Assembly (NCBI GenBank): GCA_964491475.1
Contig: CAZBFO010000004.1
Location: 67,290-131,289, forward strand
From: an uncultured Gammaproteobacteria bacterium
GTDB taxonomy: Bacteria; Patescibacteriota; Patescibacteriia; SG8-24
Direction: 5' to 3'
DNA length: 64,000 nt
Of the stretch, positions 4,085-54,160 are shown piece after piece; positions within the stretch are counted from its first letter, which is position 1, and every line of letters begins with the position of its first letter. The notes under the pieces were generated by a model. The model saw only the letters and a program-made list of their open reading frames with translations, did not search any database and was not told the DNA's origin. Both the position numbers and the translations under genes were made by a program.

Positions 4085-5107
4085 ATGCTCAACCCTATGG
4101 CCAAAAAGTTCGACAACGCACCGTTCTACCGCCGCATTATCGGCGATTCACTCCGCATCGCCTGGATGCACAAGCAGCTTTGGATTTTCGGCTTCTTTGC
4201 CACCCTCATCGGTTTCGGTGGCGTATCCGAGGTGTTTTTTACCGCCATCGAGCGCACTTCGCGGACGCTTCCGGTCGCCGCCGCGCAAGGAACCTCGTTC
4301 TGGTCCATCATCCCCGGCTATTCCACGATGCGCGCAGTCATCGAGTATTCCACGGTGCCGGCCGTAGCCCTGGTGATTTGCGCCTTCGTGCTGGCCGTCA
4401 TCGGAGCGGTGTTTGCCTGGATGTCGCTGGTTTCCGTCGGTGCGCTTGTTTCGGGGTCACGCAAGATCTCTCGCGGCGGCGAGCCGACGTTCGGTGACGG
4501 CGTGAAGGCCGGCAGCGAAGCCTTTTGGCGCCTGTTCGGCCTGAACGTCCTCACCAAGACGATCATCGCTGGCGCGCTGTTCGTTTCGAGCGCCAACCTC
4601 TACGCTCTCATGCGCGACGGTTCGCTGACCAGCAGCCTGTTCTACCTCGGCTCGTTCATGCTCCTCGTTGCGGTCTCATTCATGGCCGCGCTCATCGAAG
4701 TGTTCGGTGCCATGTACGTCGCCATAAAGAACGCCAACATACGCATTGCCCTGGCATCCTCCCTGGCGATGATCAGATTGCATTGGCTGATCGCCTTGGA
4801 GCTGGCACTGCTGCTGCTCGTCACGACAGTGACGATCGGCGCTGCGGCGGCGCTGGCAGTAATGGTGCTTTCGGTGCCGTTCATATTCCTGATCGCCATC
4901 GCCTCCTTTCTGAAAGCCGTCGCCGCAATCTACGCCCTGATCACCCTTTCCGCTGCGCTCATCATCATCTCCGTCATCTGCCTAGGCTCATTCCTCACTG
5001 CCGTTCAGGCGACCGCCTGGACGCTCCTGTGGAGCGAGCTTGAGGAACGCCGCGCATCGGGGCTCCTGCACCGTCTGGCGCGCCGCATCGCCTCTCATTT
5101 CGACTAA
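4085..5107 (+). CDS. polytopic integral membrane protein, function unknown
   Basis: at least 6 predicted TM helices; TATAGT -10 at 4047-4052 upstream; start ambiguous among TTG 4073, ATG 4085 and ATG 4097. Confidence 0.5.
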   Translation: MLNPMAKKFDNAPFYRRIIGDSLRIAWMHKQLWIFGFFATLIGFGGVSEVFFTAIERTSRTLPVAAAQGTSFWSIIPGYSTMRAVIEYSTVPAVALVICAFVLAVIGAVFAWMSLVSVGALVSGSRKISRGGEPTFGDGVKAGSEAFWRLFGLNVLTKTIIAGALFVSSANLYALMRDGSLTSSLFYLGSFMLLVAVSFMAALIEVFGAMYVAIKNANIRIALASSLAMIRLHWLIALELALLLLVTTVTIGAAAALAVMVLSVPFIFLIAIASFLKAVAAIYALITLSAALIIISVICLGSFLTAVQATAWTLLWSELEERRASGLLHRLARRIASHFD

Positions 5108-5220
5108 CGGCGAAAAAAGGGGCACACTAAGCCACGCCTCCGAGGCGTGGCTTTTCAGTACCGCGCGACGTGCCGGTTTGAGTGGAAAGAAAGCGTAAAA
5201 AATGCTATACTGATGAGACT

Positions 5221-6966: not shown

Positions 6967-8670
6967 TTATTTTTCCTTGAGCATCTGATCGATGCGCTCG
7001 AGGATTTCGTCAGGACTCGGATCGAAATCGACGTCGATTTCGCCGAACACCGTGCTTTCGACCTCTGCGCCCGCCGCCGGTTTTACCGGAGCCGGCTCAC
7101 CGACCGTCGGTGCAGCCTTGGAAGACGGATCGCCGAAGATGGGGTCGAGCAGAGGCTCTTTGCCGAACGGCCTGGTCGGATCGTCGCCGGCCTTGGTCGC
7201 AGCGGCCGCCTGCCGAAGGATTTCCGCGAGCAGGTCCTGTTCGGTAGCCTCGTTGAAGCCGCGCTCGTGGTCGTACTTTCGCGTCATGCAGTGCCGCGAC
7301 TCGTGCGCCAAGATGATCAGCAGGCTCTGCAACGAAGGCAGTTCCGTCCTCGTCTTGGCCTGGATCCAGATTTCCTTGAAGGCCGTCTCTCCGTACCCTG
7401 CGAACCCGAGCATGCGCCGCATGGCCTCGTCGAGGGGATGGAAGAAGTAGATCGGGTACTGCGTCCGCTGCGGGAAGTGCTTGGCGAACAGCTTCCAAGC
7501 CGCCGTGAAGCGCTGCCTGCTGGCCTCGTCGAGGCCCTCGAAAGGCACCAGTTCCAGCCGGTCTTCGGGATTCTTCGGGAAGACGTCTTCGGCGTTGGGA
7601 ACGCCCAAGTCCTTCAGGAAGAGGTGAAAATCATGACTGCCCTGACGCAACAGCGTATAGCCGTAAATCTGCACGGCGTCGCTGTTGGCCACCTCGTTGG
7701 CGCTGGCCGGGAGGGCCACCTTCGGCCCAAAGACCTCATGAACCGCGCGCAGCCAGGCCACGCGCGCCTCGGGTGTCAATCTGGGGTTGCGCAGGCAACC
7801 CAAGGCGCGTTCCTCGAACTTCGCCTTGCCTTCGGCGATGCCGCGCATCACGGTGATGCAGATGTCCGCGTCGTCGAGCTTGCCGAACATGCCGCCGACG
7901 GCCGACTGATACGTCGACGGGCTCTTGAGGATGCGTTCCTCGGAGAGCATCGCCTTGTCGTACAGCGAGTAGTCGAACAGGGACGAACGCGCCGGAGCGC
8001 TGTCGCAGTCGGCCAGGACGCCGAGCAGGAACAGCCGGGTGTTCTTCACGTCCGACTTCGGCCAGATTTCGCCGATGCCGTCGACCGTCGCGTAAGCGTG
8101 GTGCCGAGACATGAACTTGAAGTACCGTTCCGGCACGTCGAGTATCTTGCCGAATTCCTCGGTGTATTCGAGATACACCGTGGTCTGCCCCTCGCCGGCG
8201 TAGCAGCGTTCGTCCGTCAGCGCCCACTCGAAGTCCTTGTCCTCGTCGTAGGCGTTGCAGACGTGCTCGCGCAGCATCTTGAAGGTCTTCTTGTCGTCGG
8301 TGCCGATGGGCTTGTCCCAATCGGGAAACGCCTCGACCACCATGTTCGACGGGAACCGCAGACGCTTCGGCTTTTCCGGTTCCCCGCCCTCGTTGAGGTA
8401 GTAGTGGTAGTGCACGTGGTGCGAAACCACCCCCTCGACGGTGACCTCGTCGGTATCGAACTCCAGAAAATAGGAACCCTGCGGGTCCCGCGAACTGATG
8501 CCGGTCGAGAGGTTGAGACGCAGCGCGGCGACAGCCGCGAGCTTGGTGCCTGAACCCTTGTTGCCGATGGTGCCGTTCTGGCTCATTTTGTCGCGCTTGG
8601 TCGACAGGCCGATGAGCTCGAGCAGCTTGCGATTCAACGAACCCTTATTCTTAATGTGCAGGTACTTCAC
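6967..8670 (-). CDS. large hypothetical protein with C-terminal gluzincin-like HExxH...E motif
   Basis: coding-like composition throughout; motif ILAHESRHCMT followed about 20 aa later by NEATE; GTG start at 8670 (MKYLHIKNKGSL) has a GGAGG SD and overlaps the stop of the upstream small ORF in a GTGA arrangement. Confidence 0.55.
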   Translation of the reverse strand: MKYLHIKNKGSLNRKLLELIGLSTKRDKMSQNGTIGNKGSGTKLAAVAALRLNLSTGISSRDPQGSYFLEFDTDEVTVEGVVSHHVHYHYYLNEGGEPEKPKRLRFPSNMVVEAFPDWDKPIGTDDKKTFKMLREHVCNAYDEDKDFEWALTDERCYAGEGQTTVYLEYTEEFGKILDVPERYFKFMSRHHAYATVDGIGEIWPKSDVKNTRLFLLGVLADCDSAPARSSLFDYSLYDKAMLSEERILKSPSTYQSAVGGMFGKLDDADICITVMRGIAEGKAKFEERALGCLRNPRLTPEARVAWLRAVHEVFGPKVALPASANEVANSDAVQIYGYTLLRQGSHDFHLFLKDLGVPNAEDVFPKNPEDRLELVPFEGLDEASRQRFTAAWKLFAKHFPQRTQYPIYFFHPLDEAMRRMLGFAGYGETAFKEIWIQAKTRTELPSLQSLLIILAHESRHCMTRKYDHERGFNEATEQDLLAEILRQAAAATKAGDDPTRPFGKEPLLDPIFGDPSSKAAPTVGEPAPVKPAAGAEVESTVFGEIDVDFDPSPDEILERIDQMLKEK

Positions 8671-43280: not shown

Positions 43281-44102
43281 CTACTTCCTGGCAAACGAAC
43301 CGGCCGCCGATTTCCCGACGGAAACCAGCGCGAACAGGACGAGCATCAGCAGGACGATCGTGCCGCCGGTGGAGAGGTTGTAGGCGAACGACACGAAGAT
43401 GCCGGCGATCACCGAGGCGACCGACACGAGTTCCGCCACCATCACGGTCACGACGAAGCTCTGGCGGAGCTGCAGCGCGGTGACGACCGGAATGACGATA
43501 AGCGCGGAAATCAGCAGCACGCCGACGATGGGAATGGACAACGACACCGTCAGCGCCGACAGGATGATCAGCACCGCGTTCACCACGCCGGTCGGAATGC
43601 CGCCCACCTTGGCGGCGTCCTCGTCGAAGGCCACGAACACCAGCTCCTTGAAGAAGGCCGCGAGAGCGATCGCCACGGCGACGGCCAAGCCCACGATGAC
43701 CCGCACGTCCGCGTCGGTGACGGTGACGATGCTGCCGAAGAGATAGCTGAACAAGTTGGCGTTCAGACCCTTCGCGAGGCTCAACAGCACGATGGCCAGC
43801 GCCAAGCTGCCGGAAAGGAACAGCGCCAGGGCCGACTCGCCGTAGACGCGCTTGGTGCCGCGCAGCCGTTCGATGCCCAAAGAAGCCGCCACCGTCGTGG
43901 CGATCGCCGTGATCACCGGATCGATGCGCGCCAAGAGGCCGATGGCAATCCCGGCCAGCGAGACGTGCGCCAGGGTGTCGGCGATCAGCGAATAGCGGCG
44001 CAGCACCAGGAAAATCCCGATGAGCGGCGCTATCACGGCGACGACGATGCCTGCTTCGAGGCCGCGGACGATAAATCCGTAATGGAAAAGCGAGGACAGC
44101 AT
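43281..44102 (-). CDS. znuB: metal (Zn/Mn) ABC transporter permease
   Basis: ABC-3 family permease, about 8 TM segments; ATG 44102 overlaps the znuC stop (ATGA). Confidence 0.8.
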   Translation of the reverse strand: MLSSLFHYGFIVRGLEAGIVVAVIAPLIGIFLVLRRYSLIADTLAHVSLAGIAIGLLARIDPVITAIATTVAASLGIERLRGTKRVYGESALALFLSGSLALAIVLLSLAKGLNANLFSYLFGSIVTVTDADVRVIVGLAVAVAIALAAFFKELVFVAFDEDAAKVGGIPTGVVNAVLIILSALTVSLSIPIVGVLLISALIVIPVVTALQLRQSFVVTVMVAELVSVASVIAGIFVSFAYNLSTGGTIVLLMLVLFALVSVGKSAAGSFARK

Positions 44103-44875
44103 CAGTGGTTGTGGCGATGGTGAGTCATGAGCCGCACGTCCTGGCCGAACAGGTTGGCGGTGGCGCTTTCCTTGAGGTACTCCTGCGGCGACATGTGGCA
44201 CACCAAGGTCTTGTCGATGCAGGCGATGTGCATGACTTCCTTGGTCACCATGGCGATGTCGTGCGACACCAGCACCAAGGTCAACCCGAGCTTCTCGTTC
44301 AGCCGCTTCAACAGGGCGTAAAATTCCGCTTGGGCGCGCTCGTCAATGCCCGTGGTCGGCTCGTCCAAGAAGACGATTTCGGGCTTGCCGGCCAGCGCGC
44401 GAGCGATGAACACCCGCTGCTGCTGGCCTCCGGACAGGTCGCCGATGAGACGATTCTTGAATTCGGCCATGCCCACTTGCTCAAGCGCGCGCAGGGCAGC
44501 CTGATGATCCTGCCTGGTCATGCTCCTGAACAGGCCGCGGCGCGCGTAACGCCCCATCAGCACGACCTCGAGCACCGTCGCCGGAAAGTTGACGTCGAAG
44601 TTGGTGACCTTCTGCGGCACGTAGCCGATGCGCGACCAGTCGCGGAACTCGGTGACGTCCTGCCCGAACAGCAGCACTTTTCCGGCCGACGGCCTGATCA
44701 GGCCGAGCATGATCTTGAGCAGCGTGGTCTTGCCGGACCCGTTCGGCCCGATCACGCCCAAATAGTCGCCCTCATGGACGTCGAAGGTGATGTCGGTCAG
44801 CACCTGCTCCTTCCCATAGGAAAAGCCGATGCCCCGGACTTCCACGATGTTCTTGATCTCGCTTACATGCGGCAT
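44102..44875 (-). CDS. znuC: metal ABC transporter ATP-binding protein
   Basis: Walker A GPNGSGKTT, LSGGQQQR signature, Walker B IVFLDEPT. Confidence 0.85.
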   Translation of the reverse strand: MPHVSEIKNIVEVRGIGFSYGKEQVLTDITFDVHEGDYLGVIGPNGSGKTTLLKIMLGLIRPSAGKVLLFGQDVTEFRDWSRIGYVPQKVTNFDVNFPATVLEVVLMGRYARRGLFRSMTRQDHQAALRALEQVGMAEFKNRLIGDLSGGQQQRVFIARALAGKPEIVFLDEPTTGIDERAQAEFYALLKRLNEKLGLTLVLVSHDIAMVTKEVMHIACIDKTLVCHMSPQEYLKESATANLFGQDVRLMTHHRHNH

Positions 44876-45879
44876 TGGAGTGCGGCGCGAAGGTTCGCCA
44901 AGTTATTTCTCATGACCGAAAGATAGTCTTGTCCCTGTGCCGGCGAATCCTGCTGCAATCCCTCGATCGGATCGAGCACCGATGTCTTTGCGCCGGTTTC
45001 GGCGGCGACCGTATCGGCCAGCTTCGGGCTGACCAGGCTCTCGAAGAAGATTGTACCAACTTTGCGCTTCCTCACGAAGGCGGCAATGTCGGCAAGTTCC
45101 TTTGGCGAGGGCTCGGCGTCAGGTGACAGGCCCGCGATCGGCACCTGGTTGAGGCCGTACGCCTTGGCCAGATAGCCGAATGCGGCGTGCGACGTGACGA
45201 TGTCCTTCTTCTCGCAGGAAGACAATCCCTTGCGGTAATCGGCATCGAGCGAATCCAGGTCATTTTTCAGGACGTCGGCATTGGCGCGAAAGGCATCCGC
45301 GTCGGCGGGATCGGCCTTCAGGTATGCCGCCGCGATATGATCCACCATTTGCTTGGCCAAGACGGGACTCAACCATACGTGAGGATCCGCCACATTCTGC
45401 CCCTCCTCCATCATGTGGTCGGTCATGAGGTCCTGACCGACGTTCACCACCAACGTATTGTCCCCGTCGAGGTTCTTTGCCACGCGGCCGCCCCAGGATT
45501 CCAAGCCGCCGAGCAGGATGACCATCTTGGCATCCTCCATTTCGGCGATATCCTGTGCCGTCGGCTCATAGTCATGCGGTTCCGCGCCGGCCGGCGTCAC
45601 GTTCACTACGGAGGCGCGGTCGCCGCCGATTCGCGAGGCGAGGTAATAGAGAGGATAGAAGCTGGTGACCACGCGCACCTTGCCGCCCGCCTCGGGAGCC
45701 TCCGGGGGCCGCACCGCAGGTCGCGTCTGCCACAAAAGGAATGCGCCGACGCCCGCTGCCAAGAGCGCGGCGGCAGTCACCAACGGTTGCCGCCAGTTCG
45801 GCTCTCGACCTTTCGAATCTTTCATTTGATCTGTCATAGCCATCATGGGGGGGTTGCCAATTGCTCTCCCTTCCAGCAT
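44863..45879 (-). CDS. znuA: metal ABC transporter substrate-binding protein (ZnuA/TroA family); start uncertain
   Basis: cluster 9 SBP blocks, H/D/E-rich loop; candidate starts at ATG 45879, 45846, 45837 or 45825, none with a clear SD. Confidence 0.75.
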   Translation of the reverse strand: MLEGRAIGNPPMMAMTDQMKDSKGREPNWRQPLVTAAALLAAGVGAFLLWQTRPAVRPPEAPEAGGKVRVVTSFYPLYYLASRIGGDRASVVNVTPAGAEPHDYEPTAQDIAEMEDAKMVILLGGLESWGGRVAKNLDGDNTLVVNVGQDLMTDHMMEEGQNVADPHVWLSPVLAKQMVDHIAAAYLKADPADADAFRANADVLKNDLDSLDADYRKGLSSCEKKDIVTSHAAFGYLAKAYGLNQVPIAGLSPDAEPSPKELADIAAFVRKRKVGTIFFESLVSPKLADTVAAETGAKTSVLDPIEGLQQDSPAQGQDYLSVMRNNLANLRAALQCRM

Positions 45880-45904
45880 AATGCAACATAGTTGCGTTTG
45901 TCAA

Positions 45905-46384
45905 ATGTCGAGCCCTATGCCGATCCCAAAAGAAAATCCCTTGGCTGTCCTCCTCCGCCAACGTTCTCTCAAAGTGACGCGCCTGCGCCTCGCCATCCTT
46001 GGCATCCTCCAAAAAGCCCACTCCCCCGTCGGCGCCCCCGAAATCATCACCGCCGCCAGGGAAGAAGGCGCGAATTACGTCACCGTCTACCGCGCCCTCA
46101 ACGCGCTCGAAAAATCAGGCATCCTCCGCCGCGTAAACCTCCGCCACAACCACGCCGACTACGAACTCCAAGACGACGGCGACCACCACCACATCATCTG
46201 CAAAACCTGCGGCAAAATCGAATCTTTCGAAAATTGCCAAATCGACAAGCTCACCAAAGAAATACTCTCCAAGAGCAAGGCGTTCGTGAACGTCGACGAC
46301 CACTCGCTGGAGTTCTTCGGCCAGTGCAAGAACTGCGCCCAGAGCCCACGCAAGACTGCTTTGCGCAGCAAGCAGCCGAGGTGA
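45905..46384 (+). CDS. zur: Fur family transcriptional regulator, likely zinc-responsive Zur
   Basis: Fur-family DNA-binding helix plus HHHxxCxxC and C-terminal CxxC pairs; divergent from znuA; ATG 45905 or 45917 preferred over the listed 45845 because a TGCAACataGTTGCG inverted repeat lies at 45882-45896. Confidence 0.75.
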   Translation: MSSPMPIPKENPLAVLLRQRSLKVTRLRLAILGILQKAHSPVGAPEIITAAREEGANYVTVYRALNALEKSGILRRVNLRHNHADYELQDDGDHHHIICKTCGKIESFENCQIDKLTKEILSKSKAFVNVDDHSLEFFGQCKNCAQSPRKTALRSKQPR

Positions 46385-48012: not shown

Positions 48013-48148
48013 GCCGAAGCGCATCACGCCTCCCGACGTCCGTCGGGAGGCTTTTTCTTTATGCCCTTGACCGTTCAGGTTGTGTCGGTAGGTGAGCGCT
48101 GCTATCCTCAAAATAGGGTTCCTTTCACGCCTACAGGGAGTACATCCC

Positions 48149-49009
48149 ATGGCGCAAAACACTCGTCAGCTGTTCTTCGCGTTCGTCCTTCTCTGCGTTT
48201 CCCAGCTGGTGGGTTGTGGCGCCGCGGCACCGCAGGCGGCAGCGGCAGCAATGCCGGCCGCGCCCGCAAGCAACGCAGGAGAAATGGCTCGCTATCGCCT
48301 CAACAGCGACGCGACCTACCGCATCGACGTGATCTCCCCCGACGGTCACGGCCACGGTTCCGGCGTCGTGATCTCGACCGAGGGGTACATCCTCACGGTC
48401 AATCACGTCGTCGACCATCCGGGCAACCTGTCCATCATGGTCTCGGAGGGCCCTGGCCCGCCCAAGACCTACCCGCTCCGGGTCATTGCCACCGACAAGG
48501 TGCACGACCTGGCCGTGGTCAAGGTCGAGCGGCGCTTCGCGAATCCCGCGATTCTCGAGGACATCCGCAACGTGCACCCCGGCGACGAGGTGTACAACAT
48601 CGGCTACCCGTACGACTACGGCGAGATGGTCGCCCGCGGCCACGTGATGCGCCTGCACTACTCGATGCCCGAGGACGAGAACGACAAGAAGCTCCCGGCG
48701 GACCGGCGCATCTACGTGCGCGACATGATCCTCTCGGACTTCCTGGCGGGCCCCGGCACCTCCGGTTCCGGCATCTTCCTCTCGTCGAGCGGCAAGCTGG
48801 TCGGCGTGATGCGCCTGCTCATCTGGCAGGGCGGCGGATACGTCGCGATGACGACCCGAGCCCTGGTTCCCGTGAACCAGGTCGAGGACTTCCTGCGGCT
48901 GTACCGCATTCCCCACGTGACGTCGGACGGCACGGTGGCCACTTACCCGCCGCTGCCTCCGCCGGCGCCGCCGGCACCTTCCGTTCCCACGCTGCAGCCA
49001 CATAAGTGA
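48149..49009 (+). CDS. trypsin-like serine protease (S1 family, catalytic triad intact), secreted
   Basis: signal peptide and lipobox LVGCG; His in ILTVNHVV, Asp in DLAVVKV, Ser in GTSGSGIF; ATG 48149 with SD AGGGAG. Confidence 0.7.
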
Positions 49010-49083
49010 CGGCAGCCCCCGCGGTCCGCTTATCGGACCGCCTTTTTTATTCCAGACGAAAAAGAGAGCGGCGCTCGCTCTCC

Positions 49084-50094
49084 TTATTCCACCCGCCAGC
49101 CTGTCGCCGCTTCCTTGATCCGGCCCGGCACGGTGAATCCGGCGGCCTTCTTGTGTCCGCCGCCGCCGAGCATCTTGGCCGGCAGCGATACGTCCGTATC
49201 GTCCGCGCTGCGGAAACTGCCCTTCACCTTGTTGCCCGGCACTTCCTTGAGGACCAGCACCGCCTTCGTATCCAAAAACTGATTCAGGAAGTTGGAAATG
49301 CCTTCCACATGCTCCTCCTCGACGCCTTCGGCGGCGACCTCGTGCTCGAAAATGGCAGTCGAGGAAACGCCCAGCTTCTCGTCGTGCTTGAGGCGCCCCA
49401 AAACGGTGCCCCACAGGCGCAACGACATCAGCGATTTGTTGCGCATCAGCTTGTTGGCGACCTCCTGGATTTTGCCGCCGCGCTTCACCAGATCGGATGC
49501 GGCGCCCAACGAAGTCCAGGTGGTCGCAGGGTTCGAGAAGTTGCCGGTATCGGTCAGGATGCCGGTGAGCAGGCAGGTGGAGATGGCGCGGTCGATGTCG
49601 GCGCCGGCGGTCTGCAGGAAGTCGTAGACCACTTCGGCCGTGGAAGACGCCGTGACGTCGAGGATGTTGATGTCGCCGTACCGCTCGTTGGTGGCGTGAT
49701 GATCAAAGTTGATGATGAACGGACGAGGAGACATCTTCGCCACCAAATCGGCGATGCCGGCGAAGCGGAGGTCGCCCGCGTCGAACACTGCCAGCACGTC
49801 GTGCTCGGGGTTTGCGAACACCGAAGGGTCGTTCGTGTAATGCTCCGTGCCCGGCATGTAGGCATACTGCTGCGGCACCTGGTCCTGGCAGTAACCGGTC
49901 ACTGGAATCCCCTCGCGCTGGCAAAAATTGTACATGGCGGCACCGGCACCGAGGGTGTCGCCGTCCGGTTTGGGATGCGAAACCGCCAGCACGCGTTTGG
50001 CGCGGCGGATGACATCGAGGGCGTTGCGGTGGAGATAGGCGATATCCATAAACGTTGAGCAAATCAACGTACCAACGCGACGCGACGCCGTCAA
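49084..50094 (-). CDS. nrnA: DHH-family phosphoesterase NrnA-like (oligoribonuclease/pAp phosphatase)
   Basis: DHH motif block HPKPDGDTLGAGAAM, DHH plus DHHA1 architecture; start may be ATG 50049. Confidence 0.8.
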   Translation of the reverse strand: MTASRRVGTLICSTFMDIAYLHRNALDVIRRAKRVLAVSHPKPDGDTLGAGAAMYNFCQREGIPVTGYCQDQVPQQYAYMPGTEHYTNDPSVFANPEHDVLAVFDAGDLRFAGIADLVAKMSPRPFIINFDHHATNERYGDINILDVTASSTAEVVYDFLQTAGADIDRAISTCLLTGILTDTGNFSNPATTWTSLGAASDLVKRGGKIQEVANKLMRNKSLMSLRLWGTVLGRLKHDEKLGVSSTAIFEHEVAAEGVEEEHVEGISNFLNQFLDTKAVLVLKEVPGNKVKGSFRSADDTDVSLPAKMLGGGGHKKAAGFTVPGRIKEAATGWRVE

Positions 50095-50187
50095 GGCGGC
50101 GCGCCCGCGAGTTGACCGTACCGCCGGGACGCGGAATGATAGCGGCGTTCTTTGGCAACGCCATTCGCGTAGAAAAAAGAGGCTTAC

Positions 50188-50916
50188 ATGCGCACCGCGT
50201 TTTTCGCCTTGCTGCTGCCGTTCTCCTTGAGCCTGTGCGACGATTCACCCACGCCCGTCGGCTCTCCTGCACCAGTGCAGCCCAAGCCGGCCGTCGCGGC
50301 GGAAACCGTCGAAACGGTGCTGCGCGTCGACATGGGCGGCAAGTATCGCGGCCCCGGCGTCGTCGTTTCCCCCGCCGGCTACGTGATCACGGCAGTCGAA
50401 AATCTGCCGGAGTACGTCTTCTGGAAGTACAGGGTGACCGTCGGCAGCGAGCGCGTTCCGGGGACCATCGTCGCCGTGGATGAACAGCTGGGCCTGGCGC
50501 TCATCCATGCCGACCGGCCGATCCGACTGTGCGCCACCTTCACTTCGCGCATCGATTTCAAGGCCGGCGACCCCGCTGTTGCCGTCGGCTATCTCGACTT
50601 CGACGGTGAGCCGCAGCTGGTGGAGCGGAGGCAGGTGCCCGCGACGATCGTCGAGGTCCATAAGCGCGGCGAGAGCGTCGGCCGTCTCGACTTGCGCGAC
50701 ATGACCACCGTTTCTCTCGAGCACGTCGAAGGGCGGCTGCACATCCTGGGCACAGGCGTCTTCTCGTCGAACCCCGACGCCTTCATCGGCATCATCGTCG
50801 GCACTTCCGAAAAGGCGTACGGGACGAGCACGCCCACTTCGCCGCTGTTCGTCGTCCCGTCGACCTCCGTGGCGACCTTCATGCGCCGTCACGGTACGGA
50901 ACCGAAAACGCAGTAG
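50188..50916 (+). CDS. trypsin-fold protein lacking the catalytic triad (pseudoprotease), lipoprotein
   Basis: aligns to the 48149 protease, but His is replaced (ITAVENL), Asp is replaced by Gly (GLALIHA) and there is no GxSGG serine motif; lipobox LSLC. Confidence 0.55.
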   Translation: MRTAFFALLLPFSLSLCDDSPTPVGSPAPVQPKPAVAAETVETVLRVDMGGKYRGPGVVVSPAGYVITAVENLPEYVFWKYRVTVGSERVPGTIVAVDEQLGLALIHADRPIRLCATFTSRIDFKAGDPAVAVGYLDFDGEPQLVERRQVPATIVEVHKRGESVGRLDLRDMTTVSLEHVEGRLHILGTGVFSSNPDAFIGIIVGTSEKAYGTSTPTSPLFVVPSTSVATFMRRHGTEPKTQ

Positions 50917-51034
50917 TTTCCCCCGACCGCACGCCTTCGTGCGGTTTTTCCTTAATTGACTTTCGTTCCCGGCGAGCCCAAAATGAGGCCGTTCTTTCCT
51001 TTCGCGCATCATTCGCCGAAATCAGGAGGATCCC

Positions 51035-51745
51035 ATGGGTTCCGCGAAACGTTTCCGGCTCCTAGCCTTCTTGGCCATTGTCTTTTTCGCCGCGCTGGTC
51101 GGTTCGCCGACCGGGCCGTCGACGGCTGCGGCCGAAGAACCGCCACCGATCACGTCCAAGGCCGACAAGGCCACCGTGCGCATCGACGCCAACGGCAATT
51201 ACGTCGGAGTAGGCGTCGTCGTTTCTGCCAGCGGACACGTGCTCACTTCCGTACAGGCCGCGGGCAGCTGGCGCTACGCCAAGTTCACCGTCGGCGACGC
51301 ACGCCTTCCCGCAAACGTGGTGGACTTCGACGAGAGCCACGGCTTGGCGCTGCTCAAGGCGGCCGCCCCTCTCCAGAACGCGCCTGTCACCCTGGCTTCG
51401 GCCCGTGCCGCAAAGAACTCCGCGGTGATGCTGATCTGCTATCGGCAGGTGTCGAGCGAACCGCCGATGATCTCTCGTCGCAAGGACACGGGCCTAGTCA
51501 CCGACCCGTCATACGGCGGCGAATCGTCGGGGACGCTCGACCTCCGCGACCTGGAAATCGTCCGCGTGCGCGGCCAAGAACAGATGTCGCCCTACGCGTA
51601 CGCCCCCGTCATCTCCGCGAAAACCGGAGAAATCGAGGGATTCGTCATTGGCAACATGCGCCGCTACGACGTCACCGACGTGCTGGTGATGCCGGCAAGC
51701 GTCATCAGGACGTTCCTTCAGGCGCAGAAGGTGCCTCTTCCGTGA
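51035..51745 (+). CDS. trypsin-fold protein lacking the catalytic triad (pseudoprotease), secreted
   Basis: paralog of 50188-50916: VLTSVQAA replaces the His block, GLALLKA replaces the Asp block, no Ser motif; signal peptide. Confidence 0.55.
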   Translation: MGSAKRFRLLAFLAIVFFAALVGSPTGPSTAAAEEPPPITSKADKATVRIDANGNYVGVGVVVSASGHVLTSVQAAGSWRYAKFTVGDARLPANVVDFDESHGLALLKAAAPLQNAPVTLASARAAKNSAVMLICYRQVSSEPPMISRRKDTGLVTDPSYGGESSGTLDLRDLEIVRVRGQEQMSPYAYAPVISAKTGEIEGFVIGNMRRYDVTDVLVMPASVIRTFLQAQKVPLP

Positions 51746-51841
51746 CCTTTCTCCCGCAACCGTTGCGGGTTTTTTATTGGGAAATCGGAGGTTGCGGTTG
51801 CCCGCCGGTTTGCTACACTTCGAGCAGAAATTCACCTCCCT

Positions 51842-54160
51842 ATGCATCTCCAAAAGCTCGAACTTGTCGGATTCAAGTCGTTTGCCGAAAAGGCCGAACT
51901 CGATTTTCTCTCGCCCGCCAACGGAGGCAAGGGCATTACCGCCGTAGTCGGCCCCAACGGTTCGGGCAAATCCAACGTCGCCGACGCCATCCGCTGGGTG
52001 CTGGGCGAGCAGTCGCTCAAGCTGCTCCGCGGCAAAAAGGCCGAGGACGTCATCTTTTCCGGTTCCGAAAAGCGCTCCCGCTCCGGCTTTGCCGAAGTCA
52101 CCCTCTACTTCAACAACGAGGACGGCAAAATGCCGGTCGACTTTTCGGAAGTGGCCATCTCCCGCCGCATTTACCGCGACGGCGACTCCGAATACCTCAT
52201 CAACAAGAACAAAGTCCGCCTTGCCGACATCCAGCTGCTCCTGGCCCAGTCCAACTTCGGCGCGCGCTCCTACTCGGTCATCGGCCAGGGCATGATCGAG
52301 GGTGTGCTCATTGCGACGCCCCAAGAGCGTAAGGAATTCTTCGACGAAGCCGCCGGCGTAAAGCAGTTCCAGCTCAAGCGCCACCAGTCGGTAATCAAGC
52401 TCGAAGCCACCCGCGAAAACCTGCAGCAGGCCGAAATGCTTTTGGCCGAAATCGAGCCCCGCATGCGCTCGCTCGCCCGCCAGGTGAAGCGCCTGGAGGA
52501 GCGCGGCAGCATCGAAGAAGAGCTGCACGCGCTCAAGCACCAGTACTACGGCAGCCTGTGGTTCGACCTCAAGAAGCAGATTGATGCCCGCGGCGCGACC
52601 GTGGCAAAGCTCGAAAAGGAATGGCGCGAAAAGGAGTCCACGCTCGATTCTGCCAAGGCCGAACTGTCCTCTTTGGAAATCGAAGAAACCGGCAGCGACG
52701 CCTTCTCCGCGCTCCAGGGCGACTACGAAAAGCTGCTCGAGGAGAAGAACCGCCTCCGCAGTGCCGAGATGACCGCGCGCGGCAAGATCGAAATAGCCGA
52801 ACAGGTGAAGAAGCGCGTGGCCGCTTCGGTGGCAGCTGCAAAAACCAGCATGCCGCTCTCCAAGATCATCGAGGAGATCGGCAGCGTCGCCAAGCGCCAG
52901 GACGCTTTGGTAGCCCGCGTGCGCTCTGCGAAGACGCTCGAAGCAGTGCAGGCGGTGTTGCCGGAATTGGAGAAGCTAACCGGCGACGTCGAAGCTCTGC
53001 GCGACCGTCTGGAACGCCCAGTGGCCGAGCCACAGGCCGAAAAGTCGGCGGCAGAACAGGAAACTGACCCGGCGCTGCTCAAGGAAGTCGCCGACCTCGT
53101 TGCGGGCATCTCCGCCCTCGACGTGAAGCTGCGCGAGGCCCAGTCCAAGCTCCAGACCTACAACCAAGGCGAGATGAAAAAGAAGGAAAAGTTCTTCTCC
53201 CTCCAGCGCACGCTGCAGGAGAAGATCAACGCCGCGCACCAGCTTGAACGCCGCCTTGGCGACGAGCGCGTGGAGCAGGCCCGCCTGGACACCCGCCGCG
53301 AGCAGCTCGAATCCGAAATGGCTGCCGAGCTCGGCGAAAAGGCCAAGCACGTCCGCGACAGCTTCACGCCCACCGACGACCCGGCCCAGCGCCCCGACGC
53401 CGTGCTCCCCCAGATGAACCGCCTCAAGTACCAGCTGCAGCTCATAGGCGGGATCGACCCGGAGGCGGTCAAGGAATACGAGGAGACCAAAGGCCGATTC
53501 GACTTCCTCGAAGGCCAGACCAGCGACCTTCGCAGGGCCATCGACGACTTGGACCGCGTCATCGCCGAACTCGACATCACCATCAAGGCCAAGTCCGAAT
53601 CGGCCTTCCGCCAACTGAACCGCGACTTCAACGACTACTTCAAGCAGCTGTTCGGCGGCGGTCATGCCGAATTGATCCAGCTCCGCGAAGAGCCGAAAGA
53701 TGAGGACGACGAAGGTGCGGTCGCCGAAGGCACACAGGAAAAAGACGAACCCAAAGCCCAGAAAAAGGCTTCGGACCACATCGTCGGCATCGACATCCAT
53801 GCCACTCCCCCGGGCAAGAAGATCAAGAACATCGCCATGCTCTCCGGCGGCGAGCGCGCCCTGATCTCCATCGCGCTCATCTGCGCCATCATGAACAGCA
53901 ACCCCTCGCCGTTCGTGGTGCTCGACGAAGTCGACGCCGCGCTTGACGAGTCCAACGCCGACAAGTTCGCCAGCATCATCGAGACCCTGGCCGAGAAGAC
54001 GCAGTTCATCGTCATCACCCACAACCGCTACACCATGCGCAAGGCCAACGTCCTCTACGGCGTGACCATGCGGCAGGACGGCACCTCGATGCTGCTCTCC
54101 ATCAACCTCGACGAGGTCGGCACGCTCGCGAACGCCAGCAAGGAGAAGATGACCGTCTAA
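51842..54160 (+). CDS. smc: SMC-family ATPase lacking a hinge domain (772 aa)
   Basis: SMC-specific N-terminal block LELVGFKSFAEK ... GPNGSGKSNVADAIRWVLGEQS and C-terminal block LSGGERALISIALICAIM ... VLDEVDAALDE ... FIVITH; about 450 aa of coiled coil with no glycine-rich hinge. Confidence 0.8.
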   Translation: MHLQKLELVGFKSFAEKAELDFLSPANGGKGITAVVGPNGSGKSNVADAIRWVLGEQSLKLLRGKKAEDVIFSGSEKRSRSGFAEVTLYFNNEDGKMPVDFSEVAISRRIYRDGDSEYLINKNKVRLADIQLLLAQSNFGARSYSVIGQGMIEGVLIATPQERKEFFDEAAGVKQFQLKRHQSVIKLEATRENLQQAEMLLAEIEPRMRSLARQVKRLEERGSIEEELHALKHQYYGSLWFDLKKQIDARGATVAKLEKEWREKESTLDSAKAELSSLEIEETGSDAFSALQGDYEKLLEEKNRLRSAEMTARGKIEIAEQVKKRVAASVAAAKTSMPLSKIIEEIGSVAKRQDALVARVRSAKTLEAVQAVLPELEKLTGDVEALRDRLERPVAEPQAEKSAAEQETDPALLKEVADLVAGISALDVKLREAQSKLQTYNQGEMKKKEKFFSLQRTLQEKINAAHQLERRLGDERVEQARLDTRREQLESEMAAELGEKAKHVRDSFTPTDDPAQRPDAVLPQMNRLKYQLQLIGGIDPEAVKEYEETKGRFDFLEGQTSDLRRAIDDLDRVIAELDITIKAKSESAFRQLNRDFNDYFKQLFGGGHAELIQLREEPKDEDDEGAVAEGTQEKDEPKAQKKASDHIVGIDIHATPPGKKIKNIAMLSGGERALISIALICAIMNSNPSPFVVLDEVDAALDESNADKFASIIETLAEKTQFIVITHNRYTMRKANVLYGVTMRQDGTSMLLSINLDEVGTLANASKEKMTV

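Follow-up and report, generated by a model that had tools for sequence, protein, structure and literature searches.

Trypsin-like genes of the locus

The stretch of DNA analysed here (hereafter the window) comprises 64,000 nt of contig CAZBFO010000004.1, positions 67,290 to 131,289, and all coordinates below refer to it unless another locus is named. It carries three genes for trypsin-like proteins, designated P1, P2 and P3, in the neighbourhood of genes for a small lipoprotein (X), a DHH/DHHA1 phosphoesterase and a short SMC protein (Table 1). A preliminary description of this DNA had proposed that P1 is a live S1-type protease and that P2 and P3 are exported paralogs of it devoid of the catalytic triad. 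The three open reading frames (ORFs) were found at the positions where they had been described, and a scan of all window ORFs with the active- and dead-family profiles revealed no further trypsin-like genes. Judged by its sequence, P1 is a lipoprotein protease of the HtrA type that has no PDZ domain and keeps an intact triad, and P2 and P3 are predicted to be exported, catalytically dead paralogs of a P1-type protease.

The host is an ultra-small groundwater bacterium of the Patescibacteria. Its only classified relative, and the closest genome, is the metagenome-assembled genome nzgw371 (1.17 Mb; loci L001 and L007), which belongs to the class ABY1 and to the order and family SG8-24 (PMC12455944).

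The active protease P1

P1 matched the Trypsin_2 model (PF13365, MEROPS clan PA) with 79.1 bits, well above the gathering threshold of 27.6. Its TVNHVV, DLAVVKV and GPGTSGSG segments aligned to the His, Asp and Ser blocks of Helicobacter pylori HtrA (PDB ID: 5y28; E 2.6e-16), in agreement with the S1-type residues originally proposed for this protein. The triad, His86/Asp120/Ser205, is intact, and the glycine of the oxyanion hole is Gly203. A GTG codon upstream (48092) is a possible start, albeit orthologs of 278–286 aa favour the ATG at 48149. Export signals of this and the other two proteins were read from the sequence by eye, not with a predictor, and in this way each of the three was seen to carry one, as had been proposed. 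P1 possesses the canonical lipobox LVGC, the consensus in bacterial lipoproteins being L-[ASTVI]-[GAS]-C; a Cys directly following the hydrophobic segment, in the form x-[GA]-C (e.g. LVGC, LSAC, IPAC), is shared by P1 and all 15 of the P1-like sequences listed.

No PDZ domain was detected in P1, P2 or P3 by Pfam searches at E≤1. HtrA proteases are closest to P1 in sequence and, like MarP, DegS and DegP, are extracytoplasmic. Nevertheless, assignment of P1 to DegP, DegS or MarP proper had to be rejected, as its scores were far under the NCBIfam cut-offs: P1 reached 74.5 bits with the HtrA/DegP family model TIGR02037 (cut-off 416) and 34.2 bits with the MarP model NF033740 (cut-off 250), the score of P3 with the latter model being 17.4 bits. 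In contrast to members of the MarP family, which possess a membrane domain of four N-terminal transmembrane helices, the window proteins start with a single signal or lipobox segment. The trio further differs from the HtrA family in having no PDZ domain and, in the case of P2 and P3, no triad.

P2 and P3 have lost the catalytic residues

With the Trypsin_2 model, P2 and P3 scored 26.2 and 26.3 bits, respectively, just under the threshold, and the matches were confined to the N-terminal barrel; no further significant domain was found in either protein by the Pfam scan. P2 and P3 are 28% identical (E 7e-17) and P1 and P2 23% identical (E 2e-5), and the pairwise comparison of P1 with P3 was not significant. 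A hidden Markov model built from 15 P1-like sequences matched both P2 (E 1.2e-20) and P3 (E 2e-14). Comparison of the active-family profile with the dead-family profile in hhalign yielded an alignment of 191 columns that extends over both barrels and the C-terminal helix (probability 99.9%, E 3.4e-31). At the level of profiles, common descent of the P1 type and P2/P3 is secure.

The same profile alignment, read together with the secondary structure of the P2 model, served for the comparison of the active sites. From P1 to P2, His86 is replaced by Glu71, Asp120 by Gly102, Ser205 by Leu187 and the oxyanion-hole Gly203 by His185. P3 displays Gln at the His position and Gly at the Asp position, and its Ser motif is gone. 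The catalytic residues have thus not merely been shifted: the profile alignment places non-catalytic residues at all triad positions, and the description of P2 and P3 as triad-less paralogs of P1 is upheld.

The AlphaFold2 model of P2 displayed a two-barrel trypsin fold followed by a C-terminal helix (predicted local distance difference test 79.7, predicted template modelling score 0.78). The top PDB matches of this model in Foldseek, and its closest solved folds, were MarP (Rv3671c), DegS and DegP, with E values of 5e-10 to 2e-8. P1 and P3 are expected, through homology, to adopt the two-barrel fold as well. The hydrophobic N-terminus of P2 ends in Cys17, which is conserved in the clade and is preceded by an atypical −1 residue (LSLC, MSLC or GTMC in the clade; LSLC in P2 itself), and P2 is a probable lipoprotein. 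In the P3 clade, a conserved A-x-A site comes after the hydrophobic stretch, and Cys is absent. Charge and isoelectric point of the mature proteins revealed nothing distinctive.

The dead proteins form a family of their own

For P2 and P3, a word-indexed search returned only 4–5 close homologs apiece, with identities of 79%, 54% and 51% for the orthologs of P2 and of 61–76% for those of P3. Searches with the P3-clade alignment retrieved one genome only in the GTDB species set and none of the JGI metagenome contigs. When 1.84 billion representatives were searched with a profile, 176 matched at E≤1e-3 and 10 at E≤1e-30. Full-length dead members account for approximately 15–20 of these representatives and are 220–265 aa long; the next-best full-length matches are P1-like active lipoproteins. 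Neither Pfam and NCBIfam nor the literature was found to contain a description of the P2/P3 family, and a literature search on Patescibacteria with HtrA likewise yielded nothing relevant. Pseudoproteases as such are already known; the family of P2 and P3 is small, conserved and hitherto undescribed.

Loss of the triad holds over 20 members of the dead family. The His position is occupied by E, S, Q, R, T, A or M and the Asp position mostly by Gly, Asp being kept in two of the 20; the Ser motif is gone, and the position of the nucleophile is Leu, Ala or variable. At least 15 of the 20 members share two elements that are not present in active relatives, namely a six-residue insertion between strands 7 and 8 (S-[DE]-P-P-M-[IV]-x-[RK]-[RK]) and the motif G-E-S-x-x-x-L-D-L-x-D between strands 8 and 9. 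Residues P142, P143, M144, R148, G161, S163, D168, L169 and D171 are each conserved in at least 16 of the 20. The insertion would appear to take the place of loop LD of HtrA proteases and the GES motif that of loop L3, as judged from the alignment together with the model's DSSP string rather than from inspected coordinates.

Good conservation of the polar residues S163, D168, D171 and R148 raises the question of whether P2 and P3 might still be proteases acting through non-canonical catalytic residues. We consider this highly improbable. None of the four is invariant, GES becoming GET, GEA or VET in some members, and they are located in loops and not at the triad positions; in addition, the position of the nucleophile is not preserved and the oxyanion-hole Gly is lost.

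Ratios of non-synonymous to synonymous substitutions (dN/dS; Nei-Gojobori) between the window and locus L005 were 0.16 for P2, 0.16 for P3 and 0.20 for P1, and those between the window and the more distant L001 were 0.27–0.30, a rough estimate, since dS is about 1.0 and near saturation for the distant pair. Intact ORFs of the P2/P3 type were present in at least seven loci. P2 and P3 are under purifying selection and are not decaying pseudogenes. They had been called neofunctionalised, which is a fair term for intact genes of long standing that are maintained by purifying selection and have conserved motifs of their own.

Arrangement of the locus

Table 1. Features in and around the trypsin-like genes of the window.
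Feature	Position	Strand	Remarks
znuB, znuC, znuA and Fur-family regulator	43281-46384	- (znuB, znuC, znuA), + (regulator)	Just upstream of clpP
X, lipoprotein, 242 aa	47284-48012	+	No Pfam/NCBIfam match
Terminator-like hairpin after X	48028-48051
P1, PDZ-less HtrA-type serine protease, 286 aa	48149-49009	+	Trypsin_2 E 7.5e-22
Terminator-like hairpin after P1	49021-49041	+
DHH/DHHA1 phosphoesterase (NrnA-like)	49084-50049	-	DHH E 2.4e-14, DHHA1 E 6.6e-10; start codon set by 321-aa orthologs
Promoter-like site of P2	50112-50140
P2, predicted catalytically dead trypsin-fold protein, 242 aa	50188-50916	+	Probable lipoprotein
Terminator-like hairpin after P2	50925-50946
Promoter-like site of P3	50956-50984
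P3, predicted catalytically dead trypsin-fold protein, 236 aa	51035-51745	+	Signal peptide or anchor, no Cys
Terminator-like hairpin after P3	51753-51769
Short SMC, 772 aa	51842-54160	+	TIGR02168 627 bits; context gene outside the protease module
DUF5652 membrane protein, 77 aa	54183-54416	+	E 1.2e-19; directly 3' of SMC, same arrangement in L009
Coiled-coil protein, 232 aa	54536-55234	-	At the place of the PspA_IM30 gene in L008
TPM-domain membrane protein, 838 aa	55301-57817	-	Long Ala-rich coiled region; Gly/Ser/Asp-rich tail

A GC-rich hairpin followed by a T run is positioned 8–16 bases past the stop codon of each of X, P1, P2 and P3; that of P1 has an 8-bp stem with 7 GC pairs. Together with the promoter-like sites ahead of P2 and P3, these hairpins suggest that X, P1, P2 and P3 are separate transcription units, the promoter and terminator scans being consensus matches only. 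The sole hit of the Rfam and tRNA scans of the window was a tRNA-Glu far from the locus.

The name nrnA, under which the DHH/DHHA1 gene was originally described, holds only approximately: both domains are present, but the protein scored 65 bits with the NrnA model (NF053633) against a cut-off of 350. X matched no family in Pfam or NCBIfam. Orthologs of X adjoin the P1-type gene, directly upstream of it, in L001, L006, L008 (where there are two tandem copies) and L009, and a homolog (34% identity, E 6e-29) is present in L013, a locus without protease genes. X is therefore older than the protease module.

Further downstream, the pair of genes for a coiled-coil or PspA-like protein and a TPM-domain protein that follows the SMC gene is kept in L008 as well. 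The znuABC/Fur arrangement upstream of clpP is common to the window and L001 and is not found in L008, L013 or L014.

Distribution and repeated inactivation

The gene order ClpP ... X – P1 – DHH (reverse strand) – dead copies – SMC recurs in L001, L005, L006, L008 and L009, and two short contigs, L010 and L015, have additional dead copies immediately 5' of SMC. One active and two dead genes are found in the window and in L001, one active and three dead in L005, one of each in L008, and two active and three dead in L009. Wherever a contig was of sufficient length for an assessment, the dead genes were accompanied by an active gene of the P1 type. Two loci from more remote relatives with the same short SMC, L013 and L014, display the order ClpP – (X) – DHH (reverse strand) – SMC – S16 – KhpA – TrmD and contain neither active nor dead trypsin-like genes. 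Since these loci keep the backbone without them, the protease genes are additions to an older arrangement.

The neighbourhood of nrnA and SMC, pointed out in the preliminary description, consequently carries no weight: the ClpP–DHH–SMC backbone exists without proteases, so the site beside the DHH and SMC genes reflects inherited gene order without functional meaning. An operon or functional unit of the proteases with SMC or nrnA was rejected on this ground and because the genes have hairpins of their own. That P2 and P3 are either pseudogenes in decay or parts of such a unit would be in line with the loss of their catalytic residues and with their constant position directly upstream of SMC. 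However, the ORFs are intact across loci with dN/dS of 0.16–0.34, each gene has its own export signal, promoter-like site and terminator-like hairpin, and the proteins, being exported, are in a different compartment from the cytoplasmic SMC and DHH proteins. We regard this explanation, in either form, as the least credible of those considered.

In a neighbour-joining tree, dead proteins carrying the insertion (the PPM type) formed a clade that was separate from the active one and was divided into a P2 and a P3 subclade. Other dead copies, which do not have the insertion, were placed elsewhere in the tree; these are L005 4899–5609, L009 3626–4309, L015 312–1001 and the sequences P0024 and P0032. 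Downstream of DHH in L009, the gene at 4417–5124 has retained the His (TTAHFV) and Asp (LDLALL) and displays Ile at the Ser position (GAIGAG), and its sequence suggests a protein partway to inactivation. The third dead copy of L005 (4899–5609) has Gln for His and Gly for Asp, but its GCSNGTP motif retains a Ser. Because the dead copies are scattered in the tree and only the Ser has been lost in the L009 protein, catalysis has been lost more than once at this locus. Two additional genes were observed among these loci: in L005 a gene for a lipoprotein-like product of 205 aa (1487–2104), located between P1 and DHH, and, between DHH and the lone dead copy of L008, an ORF of 157 aa (7432–7905) with neither a signal peptide nor a family match.

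Possible roles of P2 and P3

We tentatively favour, with somewhat less than even confidence, the reading that P2 and P3 are non-catalytic binding or regulatory partners of P1. A P1-type lipoprotein protease would have duplicated within one sublineage of Patescibacteria and given rise to the dead PDZ-less HtrA-fold family. P2, lipid-anchored, and P3, secreted or anchored, would both be located at the cell membrane, on its outer side, where they may work with P1 as peptide- or protein-binding subunits that tune its activity or present substrates to it. A partner role for P1 is favoured because the conserved elements are placed at the activation and sensor loops of HtrA proteases and because the dead genes never occur without a live one.

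Regulation of a live paralog by a pseudoenzyme is a widely recurring theme, but few of the bacterial examples are understood. MamO is, to our knowledge, essentially the sole studied bacterial pseudoprotease of the trypsin/HtrA fold. MamO promotes the activity of MamE independently of its own triad, and loss of activity has recurred independently in the magnetosome proteases (PMC4794232). The locus described here shares several features with this case: an HtrA fold with a degenerate triad stands beside an active paralog, the origin is by duplication, and inactivation has been repeated independently; as with MamO, P2/P3-type genes have a P1-type gene beside them in five of five informative loci. 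Unlike MamO, which is fused to a TauE domain, binds metal via H148 and H263 and functions in biomineralisation, P2 and P3 are small exported proteins that comprise one domain and no complete di-His site; they possess an LD-loop insertion of their own, and their candidate partner P1 has no PDZ domain. With the NF040961 MamO model, scores were 11–17 bits against a cut-off of 800. A second parallel is provided by Clostridioides difficile, in which the genes for the dead CspA and CspC adjoin that for the active CspB and their products serve it as receptors or regulators (PMC7200643). There too, dead paralogs are encoded beside a live protease, although the Csp proteins are spore proteins of the subtilisin fold with an experimentally established signalling role, whereas P2 and P3 have the trypsin fold and their role is one that we infer.

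The resemblance to MamO might be taken further, P2 and P3 being metal-binding pseudoproteases, perhaps linked to zinc in view of the nearby znuABC and zur genes. In sequence searches of the PDB, the dead-family profile indeed matched the protease domain of MamO best (5hm9/5hma, E 4e-4), with HTRA1 behind it (E 0.23). A His immediately preceding the position of the lost Asp (ESHGLALL) is conserved in the P3 clade and aligns to H148 of MamO, and genes for ZnuABC and a Fur-family regulator are situated 2–5 kb upstream. However, the MamO match is weak and restricted to the N-terminal barrel, there is no TauE domain, and Znu/Zur genes are missing from the equivalent region of three related loci. 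A MamO-like di-His site in P2/P3 is unsupported, as the P3 clade does not conserve the second MamO ligand, which belongs to the C-terminal helix, and the P2 clade does not have even the first His. Therefore, a metal-binding role is very unlikely.

Several points weigh against the partnership with P1. The assignment of loops LD and L3 as well as the dN/dS ratios are subject to the reservations given above. The oppositely oriented DHH gene stands between P1 and P2/P3, and all three protease genes look monocistronic, so that co-regulation is not implied. Furthermore, the sample on co-occurrence is small, with five informative and two negative loci, and the association with P1 may merely reflect local duplication.

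Some of the same observations would suit a role of P2 and P3 that is independent of P1, either as an extracytoplasmic holdase or chaperone or as a surface receptor or adhesin in an episymbiotic bacterium, with peptides or proteins of the host cell as its targets. Fold, export, selection and the conserved cleft-side loops fit such a role equally well, and each of the three genes seems to be transcribed on its own. P2 and P3 also change quickly, as is usual for surface proteins: the window and L001 versions are 55–62% identical, compared with 88–91% for the DHH and SMC proteins. DegP keeps its chaperone activity without its Ser. On the other hand, P2 and P3 are found only in loci with a P1-type gene, and no particular ligand is indicated. 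We consider an independent binding or chaperone role possible, if on the whole unlikely; it is nearly as likely as the role of P1 partner.

The partner role could be extended to a more elaborate picture, which we think decidedly improbable. P1, P2 and P3 would assemble into mixed HtrA-like oligomers at the cell surface, in which the remodelled LD and L3 loops of the dead subunits would turn the one live subunit on or off or capture particular proteins, possibly host-derived ones. The locus would keep generating dead subunits, with one to three copies as well as intermediates, in a bacterium that is itself probably host-dependent.

The adjacent SMC protein

The SMC protein encoded downstream of P3 had been described as hinge-less, and this is supported. 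Its heads are canonical and split between the N- and C-terminal parts, the score with TIGR02168 exceeding the cut-off of 567 bits; the Bacillus subtilis Smc head (PDB ID: 5xg3) was matched with E 1.5e-102, and Foldseek gave a match to Smc head and joint. No match to the SMC hinge (PF06470) was obtained in Pfam at E≤1, no PDB hinge matched residues 300–460 in sequence searches, and none is recognisable in the AlphaFold2 model. In that model the arms are roughly 135–150 aa long and the centre consists of two short helices (residues 340–362 and 366–391) between low-confidence linkers. The centre corresponds to a conserved, all-helical element of approximately 50–90 aa, in which the motifs PLSKIIEE and LRxRLERP are kept across 30 homologs.

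The hinge domain is lacking in all 120 of the listed SMC homolog clusters from Patescibacteria. These clusters are 519–808 aa long, nearly all of them 735–808 aa, with a few shorter partial sequences, and the homologs are named Patescibacteria, Uhrbacteria and 'Parcubacteria bacterium SG8_24'. Prokaryotic Smc proteins have arms of about 340 aa and a central hinge, and the window protein fits neither description. In B. subtilis Smc the hinge can be replaced by the Rad50 zinc hook, and functional arm lengths fall in the ranges of approximately 253–267 and 321–344 aa (PMC5344682). The window SMC resembles the engineered Mini-Smc and zinc-hook forms in its canonical heads, shortened arms and non-hinge apex element. 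In contrast to these, it is natural, its arms are below the functional ranges, and it does not possess a CxxC hook. No description of this natural form was found in the literature on hinge-less bacterial SMC and on the SMC hinge of Patescibacteria. The short SMC bears on how much arm, and which dimerisation element, a working Smc needs, and it may be a more interesting lead than the pseudoproteases.

Implications

The practical weight of the finding is limited, since the organisms are uncultured, the lineage is narrow and the role is inferred only. Nevertheless, the locus represents a compact natural series with one live gene, one to three dead copies and intermediates of partial loss. In a streamlined genome the keeping of 'useless' genes is unlikely, which makes this locus a reasonable system for asking why a dead HtrA domain is kept.

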